A stretch of DNA of 18,232 nucleotides from the NCBI GenBank assembly GCA_030637655.1, contig DAOWGI010000010.1, forward strand, positions 1 to 18,232, in the 5' to 3' direction. Source of the DNA: a candidate division FCPU426 bacterium. GTDB taxonomy: Bacteria > Oederibacteriota > JAAXVQ01 > JAUVAV01. The translations under genes were made by a program, and so were the position numbers. Shown here one piece after another: positions 12,919 through 18,232 of the stretch. The notes below the pieces were generated by a model that worked only from the letters and a program-made list of their open reading frames with translations, searched no databases and was not told the DNA's origin. Position 1 is the first letter of the stretch, and each line of letters begins with the position of its first letter.

Positions 12919-15435
12919 ATGACTATAAATAATTTAAATGAATTCTATAACTCAACTTGTCTGAATTTCAAAAATAATCTTCTATTTGATAATAAAATTA
13001 CGTTCTCCGATGCCCTGGCATTAGTAAAATCACGGGCTTCTTTTCTACAAAAAAAGGGGTATAAAAAAGGAGATGTTATTGCCATCCTGGCAAAAAATTC
13101 ATCCGACTGGGTTATAACCTATATGGCAATTACCTCCATCGGAGCGATTTGTCTAACCCTGGATACAAACCTTAAAAAGGCTGATTATCAAAAAATGCTT
13201 GATTTTGTAGGCAGTAAAGCGGTATTTGTCTCTCCAGAATATAAATCACCTTTTAAAAACAAGAAAATCTATGATATTTCTTTAAACCAAAACATCAGCC
13301 GCAGTGCTCCCCAAAAAACCAGCATAAAAGAAAATGATATAGCTACCTTGCTTTTTACTTCAGGAACCACAGGCAATCCTAAAGTCATCCAACTAACACA
13401 CAGCAATATAATCAAAACCACCATTTCCTGTATTAAACATTTGGACGTGCGGGGTACTGATACATACCTGGGAATACTGCCTCTGTATCATATATATGGA
13501 ATAATAGCCAATATAATGGGCATTTTGGGATCCGGCGCTCAGATTATTTTTCAACCGGTTCTTAAGGCACCGGATATAATAAAAAGTTTAAAAGAAAATA
13601 AAATAACCGTATTTCCAGCAGTTCCTCAACTATGGGAATTGTTTTTTGATGGAATAATAAATAAAGTCAAGGCCCAGTCCAAATTAAAGTACTGGAGTTT
13701 TATGTTTTTCCTCAATTCTGCGCCTTTGCTAAAAATTATGGGACTCTCATTTTTATTAAAAAAAATATTCAAACCCATCCATGACACTTTTGGACATTCC
13801 ATAAGATTTTTTATAAGTGCCGGCGCTCCCTTGAAGCAACAGTATTTTAGATACTACAGAAATCTTGGATATATAGTGCTAAATGCTTATGGCCTGAGTG
13901 AGACAACCGGACCTTTAAGTTCCACCTCTCTTTCTACAGCAAAACCCATATCCGTAGGAGAACCGCTGGCGGGCAATTATGTGAAAATTAAAAATGTGAA
14001 AGCAGACGGAGTCGGCGAAATATGGACAAAAGGCATCTCCCTTATGCCCGGATATTACAAAAGCCGAAAAGCTAATCAGGAGGCCTTTGATAAAGCAGGC
14101 TGGTTTAACACTGGAGACCTGGGATATATTGATAAACAAGGAGCAATATTTATAACCGGACGTTTAAAAAATATTATTGTACTGGCCTCAGGCAAGAATG
14201 TATATCCTGAGGAGCTGGAAGAATACTATAAAAAATCCGCCAAGATAGAAGAATTAGCAGTGTTTGGAAAAAAAATCAACAACACAGAGACAGCTTATGC
14301 TGTTATTGTCCCCAAAAACAAAACCCAAAATAGTTATAATGAAATAAAACAGGAAATCACTTCCCTGAACAAGGGATTACCCAGCTATAAAATAATAAGC
14401 AATTTCGCCCTCTCTTTTGATCCTCTGCCCAGGACACCAAAAAAATCACTGCCGATTTGGGAAATTGTTAAATTGTTGGAAAAAGGAGTTTATCAGACTG
14501 AAGCCGCCGGCTCAAAAATAAAACAGCAAGAATTATCAGGCAACACACCGGAGAGCAAACGGGTAATAAATGCACTTAAAATCAAATTGAGCCAAAATAA
14601 AATCTATGGAGTTCAAACCCTCTCTGATTTAGGTATTGATTCATTAAAAATGATAGATCTGATTGTTTATCTGGAACAAAAATTAGGAATTACCATCGAT
14701 ACGAACAGATTTATTAATTGCCTAAACCTGGAAGAGCTGGCTGCATATCTAGCCACCTGCGAAAAGCAGAAAAAGCAAACTCTGGATAAGGAAATTCTGC
14801 AAGGAAAAATAACTACCAGTACATTTTCAATATATAATCCCATACTTGAAGCAGCTTTATATTTAATTAAAATCATTTCCCAAGCTCTATGGAAACTGGC
14901 TATAAGACATAAAGAAAACATTAATATCAACAACAATATTATAGTTGCAAATCATGAATCCTTTTTAGATATAGTATGGATATTCGGTTTTATACCTTAC
15001 CGATTGCGAAAAAATATCTTTTTGCTGGGAAAGAAAGAAGTATCTTTTTTAAAATACATTTTTCCGGGAATAAAAACAATTTTTGTCGAGCGTAAAGGCA
15101 ATGTCGTTCCGGCTTTAAAAGCGGGAGCGGATGTTTTAAGACAGGGAAAATCCTTACTGATCTTCCCGGAGGGAACCAGGACAAAAGACGGAGGCCTTAT
15201 GGATTTTAAAACCGGCGCCGCTTACTTGTCAAAAAACCTCAAAAAAGAAATACTGCCTATAACCATTAAGGGGGCTTTTAAAATATATCCCAGAAACAGG
15301 TTGCTGCCTAAATTATTAACAAAAAACCAGGGTGAAATAATAATAAATAATAAAATAAATCCTGGAAAATTTAAAAGCATAGAAGAACTCAATAATAAAA
15401 TATTTGCTGTAATTAAATCCAATTTAAAAATTTAG
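12919..15435 (+). CDS. Fusion of long-chain acyl-AMP/CoA ligase, acyl carrier domain and PlsC-type acyltransferase
   Basis: FTSGTTGNPK, AYGLSET, FNTGDLG, GRLKNII; LGIDSL phosphopantetheine site; NHESFLD (HX4D) and FPEGTR. Confidence 0.92.
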   Translation: MTINNLNEFYNSTCLNFKNNLLFDNKITFSDALALVKSRASFLQKKGYKKGDVIAILAKNSSDWVITYMAITSIGAICLTLDTNLKKADYQKMLDFVGSKAVFVSPEYKSPFKNKKIYDISLNQNISRSAPQKTSIKENDIATLLFTSGTTGNPKVIQLTHSNIIKTTISCIKHLDVRGTDTYLGILPLYHIYGIIANIMGILGSGAQIIFQPVLKAPDIIKSLKENKITVFPAVPQLWELFFDGIINKVKAQSKLKYWSFMFFLNSAPLLKIMGLSFLLKKIFKPIHDTFGHSIRFFISAGAPLKQQYFRYYRNLGYIVLNAYGLSETTGPLSSTSLSTAKPISVGEPLAGNYVKIKNVKADGVGEIWTKGISLMPGYYKSRKANQEAFDKAGWFNTGDLGYIDKQGAIFITGRLKNIIVLASGKNVYPEELEEYYKKSAKIEELAVFGKKINNTETAYAVIVPKNKTQNSYNEIKQEITSLNKGLPSYKIISNFALSFDPLPRTPKKSLPIWEIVKLLEKGVYQTEAAGSKIKQQELSGNTPESKRVINALKIKLSQNKIYGVQTLSDLGIDSLKMIDLIVYLEQKLGITIDTNRFINCLNLEELAAYLATCEKQKKQTLDKEILQGKITTSTFSIYNPILEAALYLIKIISQALWKLAIRHKENININNNIIVANHESFLDIVWIFGFIPYRLRKNIFLLGKKEVSFLKYIFPGIKTIFVERKGNVVPALKAGADVLRQGKSLLIFPEGTRTKDGGLMDFKTGAAYLSKNLKKEILPITIKGAFKIYPRNRLLPKLLTKNQGEIIINNKINPGKFKSIEELNNKIFAVIKSNLKI

Positions 15436-15444
15436 TGTTTAAGG

Positions 15445-15488
15445 GTCGAGTAGACCGTAGGAACCACTCCTACAGACTCTCACAGAAC
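15445..15488 (-). mobile_element. 5'-truncated group II intron remnant (end of domain V plus domain VI)
   Basis: Minus strand GTTCTGTGAGAGTCTGTAGGAGTGGTTCCTACGGTCTACTCGAC: domain VI hairpin, bulged A seventh from the end, AC terminus. Confidence 0.7.
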
Positions 15489-15604
15489 ACCTAAGTTGTC
15501 AAAGTTAACACCGTACCCACTGGCTGACACGACGTATCCATGCGCCTGCAAATTATTTTTCAGCATACTCCCCTCCTATGCTATGCTCAAATACAGGAGG
15601 CTGT

Positions 15605-16168
15605 ATGAAAAAGAGCGGACTTCACCTGGTTGTTGGCCTCTTGCTGCTCGTGCCGGCCGCAGGCTGCCATCCCCGCATGGCAGGCAAACCCGTTACCCCA
15701 GGCAGTAACATCAGCATCCAACGGCATGCGGACTTACCCATCCAATTTAATTCCAAAATCCGCGACCAGGAATCCGACCGTTTTCTTGTGCGCATCAATA
15801 AATACCGCAAACAAAAAGGACTGAAACCGCTTACGGTAGACAATAAACTTCAACCAGCCGCGCAATGGCTGAGCGAAGACATGGCAGCCAAAAATTACCT
15901 TGGGCACCGGGATTCCATGGGACGCGATCCGTTCAAGCGTATAGCTGCCTTTGGTTATAACTACAACACCTACAAGGCGGAGAATGTGGCTGCCGGCCAG
16001 GAAACCGCGGCTGAGGTGTTTAAATCCTGGCAAGAGTCTAAAACCCACAACACAAATATGCTTAACCCCTATTTTACGGTGATCGGTATTGGATTTACTT
16101 ATAGCAAGAAATCCAGGTACGGCTGGTATTGGGCGACCACTTTCGGCGGGCAAAAAAGTAAAAAATAG
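15605..16168 (+). CDS. CAP (SCP/Tpx-1) domain lipoprotein
   Basis: AGGAGG RBS; lipobox AAGC; INKYRKQKGLKPL, ENVAAG, SWQESKTHNTNMLNP, IGIG, YWATTFG. Confidence 0.9.
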   Translation: MKKSGLHLVVGLLLLVPAAGCHPRMAGKPVTPGSNISIQRHADLPIQFNSKIRDQESDRFLVRINKYRKQKGLKPLTVDNKLQPAAQWLSEDMAAKNYLGHRDSMGRDPFKRIAAFGYNYNTYKAENVAAGQETAAEVFKSWQESKTHNTNMLNPYFTVIGIGFTYSKKSRYGWYWATTFGGQKSKK

Positions 16169-16501
16169 CAGACCATTTGTTTTCACTCCTGCCTGCCAAC
16201 TTGGTTACTGCTGGTTTTTAGATGAGGAATATCCAGATTAATCGTTTACACAACAGCCCATTATGCTGTGATCCCGTTTTCTCCTTCTGGTGCCGGCCAC
16301 TAAGAAACATTGTTTTTTCCCAATTCATCCAATTTCTTTTGATTTCCAAACACCGTCTCCTTACCTAACCCAAGACCATCCCTGTTCGTAGATATCGTTA
16401 TCCGCTTATCCGAACACCGGCCCCATTTACGCAGCCAAGAAACGCAGCCGTCTGCGGAAGGTGTGCAGGATGATCGCGCTGGTGGATTTGATGATGTAAT
16501 C

Positions 16502-16526
16502 GTAGGGGCGAACCTTGTGTTCGCCC
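16502..16526. repeat. GTAG-type REP hairpin (single tag)
   Basis: gtaggggcgaac-cttgt-gttcgccc. Confidence 0.75.
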
Positions 16527-16565
16527 GCCAGCGGTTTCAGTCCGTGACAAAATGTCACGACCCCT

Positions 16566-16594
16566 CGGTTCATCCCCGCTTGTGCGGGGAACGT
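16566..16594 (-). CRISPR. Solitary type I-E-like CRISPR repeat (no array, no cas genes in the window)
   Basis: Minus strand ACGTTCCCCGCACAAGCGGGGATGAACCG versus the I-E consensus GTGTTCCCCGCGCCAGCGGGGATAAACCG; hairpin and 8-nt handle ATGAACCG intact. Confidence 0.75.
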
Positions 16595-16597
16595 TGG

Positions 16598-17740
16598 TCA
16601 TAATACCTTACGCTTACTTGTCATTTTTCGTTTTCTTCCTTTAGGTTTTGTACTACTTTTTTTACTTAATGCCCGTTCAATTACTTCAACACTAGGAAGC
16701 GCCGATTTTAGTTTGGCTGGCAATGCCCTGGTCAGCTCATATTCCGAAACGCCTATCGGTTTAGCAACACCGCGTAATGTATATTCCGCAAGTATGATTT
16801 TCTTCTCTTGGCAAAGAATCAAACCGATTGTTGGATTATCTTTTTCGTGTCTCAATTGATTATCTACAACATTGCAGTAAAAATTCATCTTTCCGGCATA
16901 TTCCGGTTTGAATCCACCTTTTTTTAAATCAATTACAATGAAACAACGAAGTTTAAGATGATAGAATAATAAATCAATATAAAAATCTTCTTTTCCAATC
17001 TCAATGTGATATTGACGGCCGACAAAAGCAAATCCCCGGCCTAATTCCAGGAGAAATCTTTGCAAATGCCGAATTAAGCCGGTTTCCAATTCCCGCTCAT
17101 GAAAGGATTCTTCTAAAGTGAGAAAGTCAAAAATATATGGATCTTTAAGGGTTTGCTCTACCAAGTCTGATTGAGGTGAAGGTAGTTGCTTTTTAAAATT
17201 ATGTGTTATCTTACCCTGACGTTTGTGAGCTTGGCTTTTAATCATACTGAGTAAAACATCCCGGCTCCAGCCTTGCTCGATAATTTGCTGCATGTACCAG
17301 GCGCGATTTTCAATATCTTTCACTTTTTCCATGAGCAGAATATTATGGCCCCAGGGGATTTTTGCAACAAGCTGTTGCAAAATCTCCCGGCCGTTTACTA
17401 GTGCCACAGGCTGTGCCACTTTTTCTGATACTTTGATTTTTGCCACAGCCTGTGGCAAAATTTCACCGATATTGGGATAAGTACGGTAAAACGCTATCAT
17501 TCGCCCAATGTTCCGTTCAGAAAATCCTTTTACTTCCGGCAATTCATTACGAATATCCAATGCTAGCCGAGGAATAACCGCAGCTCCCCATCCTTTCCGC
17601 TGTTGCCGGTCATAAATGATATGGCCAACATCCCAATACATAGTGATCATTTCCACATTCGCAGAAAATACCGCGCGCGTCTGTCCTTGCCTGATTCGCT
17701 TTTTGATCTGACTTAACATTTCAATGTATTGCTTTGGCAT
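16598..17740 (-). CDS. yhcG: YhcG/DUF1016 family PD-(D/E)XK nuclease-domain protein
   Basis: YWDVG, WGAAVIPRLA, GFSERN, IPWGHN, KDPYIFDFL, FLLELG.GFAFVGRQ, IDLLFYH, GKMNFY, IGLILC; AAGGAGG RBS. Confidence 0.95.
   Translation of the reverse strand: MPKQYIEMLSQIKKRIRQGQTRAVFSANVEMITMYWDVGHIIYDRQQRKGWGAAVIPRLALDIRNELPEVKGFSERNIGRMIAFYRTYPNIGEILPQAVAKIKVSEKVAQPVALVNGREILQQLVAKIPWGHNILLMEKVKDIENRAWYMQQIIEQGWSRDVLLSMIKSQAHKRQGKITHNFKKQLPSPQSDLVEQTLKDPYIFDFLTLEESFHERELETGLIRHLQRFLLELGRGFAFVGRQYHIEIGKEDFYIDLLFYHLKLRCFIVIDLKKGGFKPEYAGKMNFYCNVVDNQLRHEKDNPTIGLILCQEKKIILAEYTLRGVAKPIGVSEYELTRALPAKLKSALPSVEVIERALSKKSSTKPKGRKRKMTSKRKVL
17360..17460. repeat. Three intragenic DNA palindromes at 39-bp spacing
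   Basis: ttttgcaaca-agc-tgttgcaaaa; agtgccaca-ggc-tgtgccact; ttttgccaca-gcc-tgtggcaaaa; centres at 17371, 17410, 17449. Confidence 0.85.
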
Positions 17741-18215
17741 TTATTCTTATTCCTCCTTGTGTAGTATAACTTTCTACACAATCAGACAGAAACGCAGCGC
17801 TTTCCTTGCAAAATATTTTATTTATTTTCAAATAACAATTGGCACGGGTATTTTCCAGTTGTCCAATTTTTCCGGATATCTCATTGTCAACCAAGGTACA
17901 ATTTGTCCCCCCTTTTTTTAGTTATCATTCGCTTTGGAAGCATCTCTATTTTTAGAACCAGCTTTAACTAAGAAAGCAGCGAACAGCATATTTATTTATC
18001 AGGTTTTGATTCGGCTTTTTTAGACTACAGATGACGATTCATTTTCATGCGATTTTTTAGAAATAATGGGGCTTCCGGGTTTGTCGTGGGTAAAAAACCG
18101 GCTAAAAGTCGGATAACCTTTTCAAATTAAGGATATATCAGTTTTTCGGTCTTTAAATAACTTGACACGTTCTGGTCACAAAGTAAGTCCCTTGGCAACA
18201 TGACTTTTATAGAGC

Positions 18216-18232
18216 CGTCACCCCGGCATGAT
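18216..18232 (+). repeat. Start of a third CGTC-type REP copy, cut by the window end
   Basis: cgtcaccccggcatgat; the last 16 nt are identical to 7027-7042. Confidence 0.75.

Follow-up and report, generated by a model that had tools for sequence, protein, structure and literature searches.

CRISPR repeats that stand outside an array and genes of Cas-associated PD-DExK proteins have both been described already. In the available part of their article, Shmakov et al. (2023, PMC10120712) find more ectopic repeats, partly degraded, in CRISPR-Cas genomes than would be expected and suggest dynamic gain and loss of them; they also describe mini-arrays that are partly complementary to cas promoters or cargo genes and occur at about 19% of bacterial I-E loci. 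Regulators of the CreA/CreR type lie in a CRISPR-cas locus, are flanked by repeat-like sequences and have a spacer partly complementary to the promoter that they repress. RNA anti-CRISPRs (Racrs) are small RNAs that inhibit interference by binding Cas6 or Cas7. They are carried by viruses, proviruses or plasmids, often just after a promoter; RacrIC1 is co-transcribed with AcrIC5, and most solitary repeat units (SRUs) agree with their host's subtype, as stated in the accessible sections of Camara-Wilpert et al. (2023, PMC10651486). Remnants of another sort are orphan arrays, among them the E. coli I-F arrays that carry anti-cas spacers (PMC8616872, in excerpt). The YhcG/DUF1016 family (PF06250 plus PF17761) is mostly known from beside type I restriction genes, with which the available part of a preprint lists it; the literature on DUF1016 or YhcG together with CRISPR yielded incidental mentions only.

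The window analysed here, 18,232 nt in length, is the entire contig C113 of a metagenome bin of 120 contigs that is 91.6% complete. The genes of its first 16 kb are housekeeping ones, among them those for glycerol kinase, oxidoreductases and PilZ/GGDEF proteins; phage genes were not seen in it, and the context of the cassette at its far end is that of a defence island and not of a virus. The cassette gene, yhcG, encodes a full-length member of its family with both domains complete (PF17761 profile positions 1-137 of 137; PF06250 positions 2-157 of 157), and PADLOC assigns the protein to candidate system PDC-S02 (1e-145) and also matches it to a PD_DExK Cas-associated model. On the minus strand yhcG is followed by CCA, a CRISPR repeat, 39 nt and a REP hairpin, the repeat thus beginning 3 nt past the TGA stop at 16598-16600 (Table 1). 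The preliminary description had reported this anatomy, an intact 29-nt repeat 3 nt after the yhcG stop in the same orientation, then 39 nt and a REP hairpin, with neither a second repeat nor a cas gene in the window, and the minus-strand coordinates agree with it throughout; the repeat, which it called solitary, is single in the window but not unique in the genome, where a second solitary unit lies at C91:18471-18570.

Table 1. Coordinates of the features discussed. Positions without a contig or locus name are those of the window; L numbers denote extracted loci.
Feature	Location	Strand	Details
Terminator-like hairpin and T-rich run	16443-16456	minus	About 50 nt beyond REP; consensus scan and fold
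REP element, GTAG-type palindrome	16502-16526	minus	Right-hand end of duplicated unit; unit homology stops there
Pseudo-spacer	16527-16565	minus	Fragment of conserved Bro-N hairpin site; hairpin at 16540-16561
Solitary type I-E CRISPR repeat, 29 nt	16566-16594	minus	One loop base off array consensus
yhcG, 380-aa YhcG/DUF1016 PD-(D/E)xK nuclease gene	16598-17740	minus	Pfam YhcG_C 7e-67, DUF1016_N 5e-40
Cassette leader / 5' UTR	17750-17910	minus	Hairpin just before ribosome-binding site; multi-way alignment
Terminal 166 nt of contig	18067-18232		99% identical to end of C120; two-copy repeat where assembly breaks
Cargo of G000 (own genome)	C82 (L036 10500-11700)		Bro-N
Cargo of G003	L035 12384-13780		YhcG
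Cargo of G047	L193 1528-3595		Distant YhcG paralog and 162-aa gene
Cargo of G066	L202		Homologues of the G047 YhcG paralog and 162-aa gene; YhcG part cut by locus edge

The repeat is single by every comparison made in the window. Its 27-nt core occurs once, against zero expected from 200 shuffles, there is no further repeat within 6 mismatches, and no cas gene was found. In the 80 nt downstream, local alignment to the repeat was no better than in shuffled sequence (1782 and 1197 of 2000 shuffles reach the score), and TGAAACCG, which follows the spacer and was considered as a truncated second repeat, was rejected, as it does not rise above shuffles and equally resembles Bro-N sequence. An array or mini-array has at least two repeats, of which the second may be degraded, around a spacer of about 32 nt; the window has one repeat and so holds neither. 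Rfam gave no family match at E up to 1 in window positions 15000-18232, nor for the single repeat unit. A 67-aa open reading frame (16398-16601, minus strand), the ATG of which overlaps the yhcG stop, runs through repeat, pseudo-spacer and REP; it matches no Pfam family, and the repeats are probably what creates it.

The junction between repeat and yhcG is real and not an assembly artefact, because independently assembled Logan contigs of two samples (X1 record 3, equal to 16502-17378; X4 record 26, equal to 16501-16858) cross REP, pseudo-spacer, repeat and the 3' end of yhcG with zero differences. The window contig stops 490 nt upstream of yhcG, inside a 166-nt repeat shared with C120 (C120:7399-7565), where the gene downstream of it is again a YhcG paralog (28% identity), with a PolX/PHP gene next. 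One X1 contig joins 16334 to 18067; this was considered as an allele lacking the island and set aside, the shorter side of the joint being only 22 letters. By consensus scan and fold there is no terminator-like site between yhcG and the repeat, the first lying downstream of the whole unit, and in this model it is likely to mark the end of a yhcG read-through transcript, in the fold of which the repeat hairpin forms as expected.

A complete type I-E system with this repeat is encoded elsewhere in the genome, on C82, where a short leader comes after the operon cas3-cse1-cse2-cas6e-cas7-cas5-(Bro-N)-cas1-cas2 and leads into an array of 11 repeats that runs off the contig end. Type I-E repeats are 28-29 nt long, with a GC-rich stem of 6-7 bp, a tetraloop and a conserved 3' handle, and are the repeats of an array beside I-E cas genes; the window repeat is one of these, its hairpin forming in the fold and 28 of its 29 positions being identical to 10 of the 11 array repeats, from which it differs by one loop base (from the eleventh by two). 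Cas6e of C82 is apparently full length, and all 10 complete spacers are 32 nt long and find no match of more than 20 nt elsewhere in the genome that would indicate self-targeting. Cutting of the yhcG read-through transcript by Cas6e is plausible, as judged from sequence, because of this matching system, the array repeat of which is one loop base different. When two Cas protein sets were compared with the assembly by tblastn, nothing apart from C82 gave a cas match, the 490 nt upstream of yhcG included.

Relatives place the yhcG lineage inside I-E CRISPR loci. The survey of the phylum covered 99 genomes, the relatives all being metagenome bins, and eight of the 99 have I-E loci with a Cas1 at least 75% identical to that of the present genome. 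Four of the eight loci carry cargo between the Cascade genes and cas1 (Table 1), and none was found there in G050, G051, G060 and G018. The closest yhcG is that of G003, where the operon reads cas3-cse1-cse2-cas7-cas5-cas6e-yhcG-cas1-cas2-leader-array with the same repeat; the two genes are 73% identical in DNA, including about 90 nt of upstream leader, and 71% in protein, and in G003 the yhcG stop overlaps the start of cas1. No cas1 homology survives after the window yhcG stop, where only 2 nt agree with cas1 starts, and the idea of surviving cas1 bases was dropped for that reason. In G004 an I-E-type array of 76 repeats ends in a terminal repeat directly followed by tandem leader-bearing cassettes, which carry Bro-N, a paralog of YhcG and a gene of the window yhcG lineage in truncated form. 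A tree of 19 rows places the G003 and G004 copies nearest to the window protein, the fork not being resolved.

The leader is the second link. About 160 nt upstream of yhcG are 81% identical to C82:38627-38788, which precedes the Bro-N gene between cas5 and cas1 of the genome's own operon, and a core of about 75 nt with a hairpin before the ribosome-binding site is common to yhcG and the Bro-N genes of G003, G005 and G007. The same leader also precedes Bro-N in the type I restriction loci of G005 and G007 and therefore marks a cassette family, not cas operons as such. The cargo of G000 and G003, the two loci from the window's own family, shares this leader, and the hairpin just before the ribosome-binding site covaries. 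In G005:C43 (L015 1374-2500) tandem leader-bearing cassettes adjoin hsdS; one leader there is followed by only a 41-nt Bro-N hairpin fragment and an unrelated 182-aa gene, after which come a second leader and Bro-N. Beyond the phylum, 28 loci of the closest YhcG relatives showed no cas genes, no leader and no convincing I-E repeat (a match with 5 mismatches about 4 kb away in a Streptomyces YhcG locus was taken as chance), and the YhcG paralogs of the genome itself have no such repeat.

The I-E loci of C82 and G003:C186 share the same repeat and are 90% identical in Cas1 and 78% in Cas2, whereas identity falls to 24-36% for Cas3 and the Cascade proteins, and the genes are differently ordered. 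Adaptation and effector modules have therefore been swapped, with the junction at the cargo site. In the G047 locus (G047:C3, L193 6584-8664) cse1 is apparently split by an IS200-like (Y1) transposase gene.

The 39 nt after the window repeat derive from a gene of the Bro-N kind, the protein of which is PADLOC PDC-S13. Their origin is clearest in the second copy of the unit, on C91, which matches the Bro-N gene of G007 at 37 of 38 positions, counted from the exact spacer start, with AAG directly before that position in the gene; AAG is the canonical I-E PAM by the rule given for E. coli in the available part of PMC10120712. A Bro-N paralog of the genome itself, on C86, matches with few mismatches and adjoins AGG. 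A 29-nt core of this site is found exactly in at least 119 metagenome contigs, lies inside Bro-N genes in 77 of the 80 loci retrieved, the flanking codons varying freely, and has AAG at the place of the PAM in 48 of the 80 and AAG, AGG or ATG in 69. Two of the 80 Bro-N loci directly follow I-E Cascade genes. Together with the hairpins of the paralogs described below, the presence of the exact 29-mer in at least 119 contigs while neighbouring codons vary points to a DNA or RNA structure under selection within Bro-N genes. The hairpin in the window (16540-16561) is a copy of the C86/G007 type.

A hairpin occupies the same coding place in all six of the genome's own Bro-N paralogs (C82:38896-39090, C86, C61, C36, C44, C91). 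The hairpin sequences and the residues that they encode differ (for example STICRQ, VTFCHG and SPIWVQ), the stems reach up to 17 bp, and TGAAA follows each. Breakpoints of gene fragments cluster at the edges of the Bro-N hairpin (G005, L106, L122).

An I-E spacer begins directly after the repeat, has a source site with a 5' AAG-type PAM and is about 32 nt long. Start and PAM agree with this here, but Bro-N homology in the C91 copy extends at least 6 nt past 32 nt (38 nt or more) and all 10 complete spacers of the array are 32 nt long, so that the stretch would not be a plain spacer; spacer-target recombination or aberrant integration would explain the overlong homology. The window stretch is also 7 nt shorter than the C91 copy (39 against 46 nt) at its 5', or seed, end. 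As a guide it finds no full target in the genome, and its related sites lie only within Bro-N coding regions; the Bro-N gene of the cas operon agrees at about 18 of 32 positions, by hand count on an alignment, with mismatches in the seed, and this site lies within the coding region. Among cultured mobile elements the pseudo-spacer has no match in phage records and a single weak one in plasmids, 34 nt long and within an 'antirepressor' gene (E 0.2); the 29-nt core is absent from phage records and from 2.9 million viral contigs. In viral contigs that carry this type of repeat there is mostly a second, degraded one about 32 nt downstream, which the window lacks.

The unit on C91 (C91:18471-18570) consists of a repeat, 46 nt and, in the corresponding position, the same REP. 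Over 102 nt the two units are 85% identical; what they have in common runs from the repeat's first base to the last of the REP, and beyond these limits the flanking sequences show no relation. The C91 repeat has three changes from the array consensus and four from the window repeat, one of them at the base of the stem. A stand-alone receiver-domain gene stops 5 nt before the unit, which forms the outer end of a type I restriction island with genes for a YhcG paralog, a Y1 transposase, HsdS, HsdR, a YgjP-like peptidase and an XRE protein and a Bro-N pseudogene. For each of the two copies the location is the outer edge of a defence island with YhcG genes. Read depth in X1 is similar for the two copies (15 and 16.3), which therefore belong to one genome. 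REP elements of the RAYT-associated type are short GC-rich palindromes with a GTAG/CTAC foot in many intergenic copies; the one here is of that kind, with 81 copies within 4 mismatches in the genome and a consensus lacking a conserved 5' flank. Comparison of the unit ends by eye showed neither terminal inverted repeats nor target duplications. No copy of the unit was found in relatives, and a pattern joining the 3' end of the repeat to the hairpin had no hits in the genome_contigs and metagenome_contigs collections, scans in which the genome itself is possibly not included. A repeat match at G007:C162, 54 nt from a contig end and with an unrelated spacer, was of no help, and a match at G002:C203 is a chance half-match within a gene. 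A REP palindrome also occurs in frame inside the YgjP-like (DUF45) peptidase gene at C91:~17020-17050.

The comparisons show how the unit is built, that the genome has a matching I-E system, what the synteny in relatives is, where the spacer came from, and that the unit is decayed and present twice. On these grounds we hold, at slightly better than even confidence, that the solitary repeat is a relic, in ectopic position, of a type I-E array, consisting of one intact repeat and the remains of a spacer derived from Bro-N. Solitary repeats also stand between genes at the array trailer of G003, which speaks for this reading. The yhcG lineage of this bacterial family would be cargo of I-E CRISPR loci, placed behind the shared leader, with the Cascade genes on one side and cas1 on the other or else at the trailer of an array, and it is because of this cargo position that yhcG would stand next to a repeat. 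A rearrangement, either loss of cas1, cas2, leader and array or a shuffling of cassettes at the array, would have left yhcG beside a single repeat-spacer unit, with the rest of the array lost and the REP now abutting the remnant. Were yhcG transcripts to read through, Cas6e would probably cut at the base of the hairpin, and the downstream piece, with its damaged seed and no 3' repeat, would be inert or at most a weak decoy. Decay is seen in the loss of 7 nt from the seed in the window, in the substitutions of the C91 repeat and in the 85% identity of the copies. We infer the order of these events and the absence of a selected function today. The relic resembles the standalone repeats of Shmakov et al. 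(available part of PMC10120712) in lying outside an array while the genome has a system of its subtype that looks active. It resembles the orphan CRISPR remnants of PMC8616872, so far as the excerpt describes them, in being array material without adjacent cas genes and with a spacer matching a gene of related cas loci; unlike them it is a single repeat, not a small array, in a genome that has a complete I-E locus elsewhere.

Several observations fit the array relic poorly, and they bear on what else the unit could be. Its precise shared ends, unrelated flanks and position 3-5 nt after stop codons in both cases look more like those of a copied or moved unit and are not predicted by simple deletion; there is no cas remnant upstream of yhcG and no cas1 homology after its stop; Bro-N homology at least 6 nt past a 32-nt spacer is unexplained by a plain spacer; and the near-perfect window repeat could reflect selection, chance or gene conversion. 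Given the identical ends, the sites after stops and the missing cas remnant, a sizeable share of probability is therefore kept for an explanation that we nevertheless consider unlikely, namely that the unit of about 100 nt (repeat, Bro-N hairpin and REP) is a small composite element, mobile or prone to copying, whose position by yhcG is incidental. It may be moved by a RAYT transposase acting on the REP end or by a process at the repeat boundary, landing after stops, and would still derive from an array in the first place. One end being the REP of an 81-copy family, the Y1 (IS200-like, RAYT-type) transposase gene in the C91 island and the placement of both copies, after unrelated genes at the edges of YhcG-bearing defence islands, speak for such an element. 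Only two copies exist, however, far more diverged from each other than many REP copies are, with none in relatives or collections, and they lack terminal inverted repeats and target duplications. REP elements, which move as REP or REPIN units, are not known to take a foreign hairpin along, and this also counts against movement as a composite. That the yhcG-repeat junction is an assembly chimera formed at the repeat is extremely improbable: the genome is a 120-contig metagenome bin and its real array runs off a contig end, but contigs of two samples cross the junction without difference, the unit copies have equal depth and the window repeat has a private loop base.

The remaining explanations give the unit a function. 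The preliminary description had proposed that Cas6 could trim the yhcG mRNA, and a working element of this kind in the 3' UTR, where Cas6e would cut, stay on the mRNA end and free a handle-bearing RNA (a crRNA mimic, Racr-like decoy or guide), tying yhcG expression to CRISPR-Cas, seems to us improbable. It is consistent with a repeat intact save one loop base, a matching host Cas6e, the run from yhcG into the repeat without a terminator-like site, a hairpin that forms in the fold and the cataloguing of YhcG-type PD-DExK genes as Cas-associated. Like a Racr, the unit has a single intergenic repeat of the host subtype, and it could, by analogy with RacrIC1 and AcrIC5, be co-transcribed with yhcG (Camara-Wilpert et al., 2023, PMC10651486, accessible sections). 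The Racrs of those sections are found on viruses or plasmids, whereas the window unit is chromosomal, beside housekeeping genes and without an acr-like neighbour, and its paralog is decayed. The array relic is favoured over a crRNA mimic because the unit occurs twice, the second time after an unrelated gene, for a receiver domain, and there with a mutation at the stem base; moreover the guide comes from a Bro-N site next to an AAG PAM, its seed end is short by 7 nt and no full genomic target exists for it, the two nearest yhcG relatives stand in an I-E operon and at an I-E array trailer, no second repeat is present to supply a 3' handle, and nothing similar is conserved at the 28 YhcG loci, beside the genome's own YhcG paralogs or in relatives. 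A regulatory mini-array of the CreA/CreR kind, in which the spacer would pair with cargo Bro-N, in the cas operon or among the paralogs, and Cascade would repress it, is very unlikely. As in the mini-arrays that Shmakov et al. describe in the available part of PMC10120712, a well-kept upstream repeat is followed by a spacer-like stretch related to a CRISPR cargo gene; the spacer derives from Bro-N, the cas operon of the genome itself contains a Bro-N gene, and the C86 paralog matches next to an AGG motif. The window unit differs from those mini-arrays in lying outside the CRISPR-cas locus, on another contig, without a degraded second repeat, in having its related sites in coding regions and not in a promoter, and in being duplicated with a REP and not conserved in relatives; the match to the cas-operon Bro-N is poor in the seed, and the two copies differ from each other in the seed.

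Taken as a whole, then, the preliminary description is partly supported. Its alternative of a decayed array is the better reading, given the evidence in relatives and the decay of the unit, and its proposed crRNA mimic or Racr found no support: of the checks that it named, the search for the pseudo-spacer gave no phage match and the survey of yhcG homologs no downstream solitary repeat. Two of the three findings that it had named as refuting were made, in that a relative carries a complete array downstream of yhcG and such a repeat follows none of the other yhcG genes surveyed; the I-E system itself is present in the genome. The coupling of yhcG to CRISPR survives as a link between loci, in the G003 operon and the G004 trailer, and not as a selected mimic; for the YhcG and Bro-N proteins the data show co-location with CRISPR genes only, and the C91 island agrees with the restriction-gene context mostly known for the family from the available part of the preprint.

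On its own the solitary repeat is another ectopic repeat of a described class and probably has no important effect. It has been useful as a marker, having led to I-E loci of an uncultured phylum in which YhcG and Bro-N genes with a shared leader sit in cas operons or at array ends, and to a strongly conserved Bro-N hairpin that gave this CRISPR type one of its spacers. Should YhcG or Bro-N work with I-E adaptation or interference, they would be accessory functions of the best-studied CRISPR subtype. A wider account, which we regard as doubtful, is that I-E loci of this candidate phylum have a defined cargo site, before cas1 on the Cascade side and at the array trailer, repeatedly filled by leader-bearing YhcG/Bro-N cassettes, that spacers are taken against the Bro-N hairpin, that recombination of the spacer-target or repeat-boundary type scatters repeat-Bro-N junctions, and that YhcG could act with the adaptation module in the manner of Cas4 in other subtypes. 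The solitary repeat would then be a scar of ongoing conflict or partnership between CRISPR loci and defence cassettes embedded in their operons.

Two further features of the array ends were seen in the relatives. Terminal repeats are chimeric in a reciprocal manner, that at G003:C186:30092-30120 ending in the G004 type and that of G004:C2 (L196 4626-4654) in the G003/G000 type, which suggests past recombination between two I-E repeat types. In the array trailer of G003 (G003:C186:30990-31082, L035) a lone type I-C-like repeat, 32 nt and a lone I-E repeat form a hybrid unit, which sits between two genes for four-helix-bundle proteins of the 23S rRNA IVP family.
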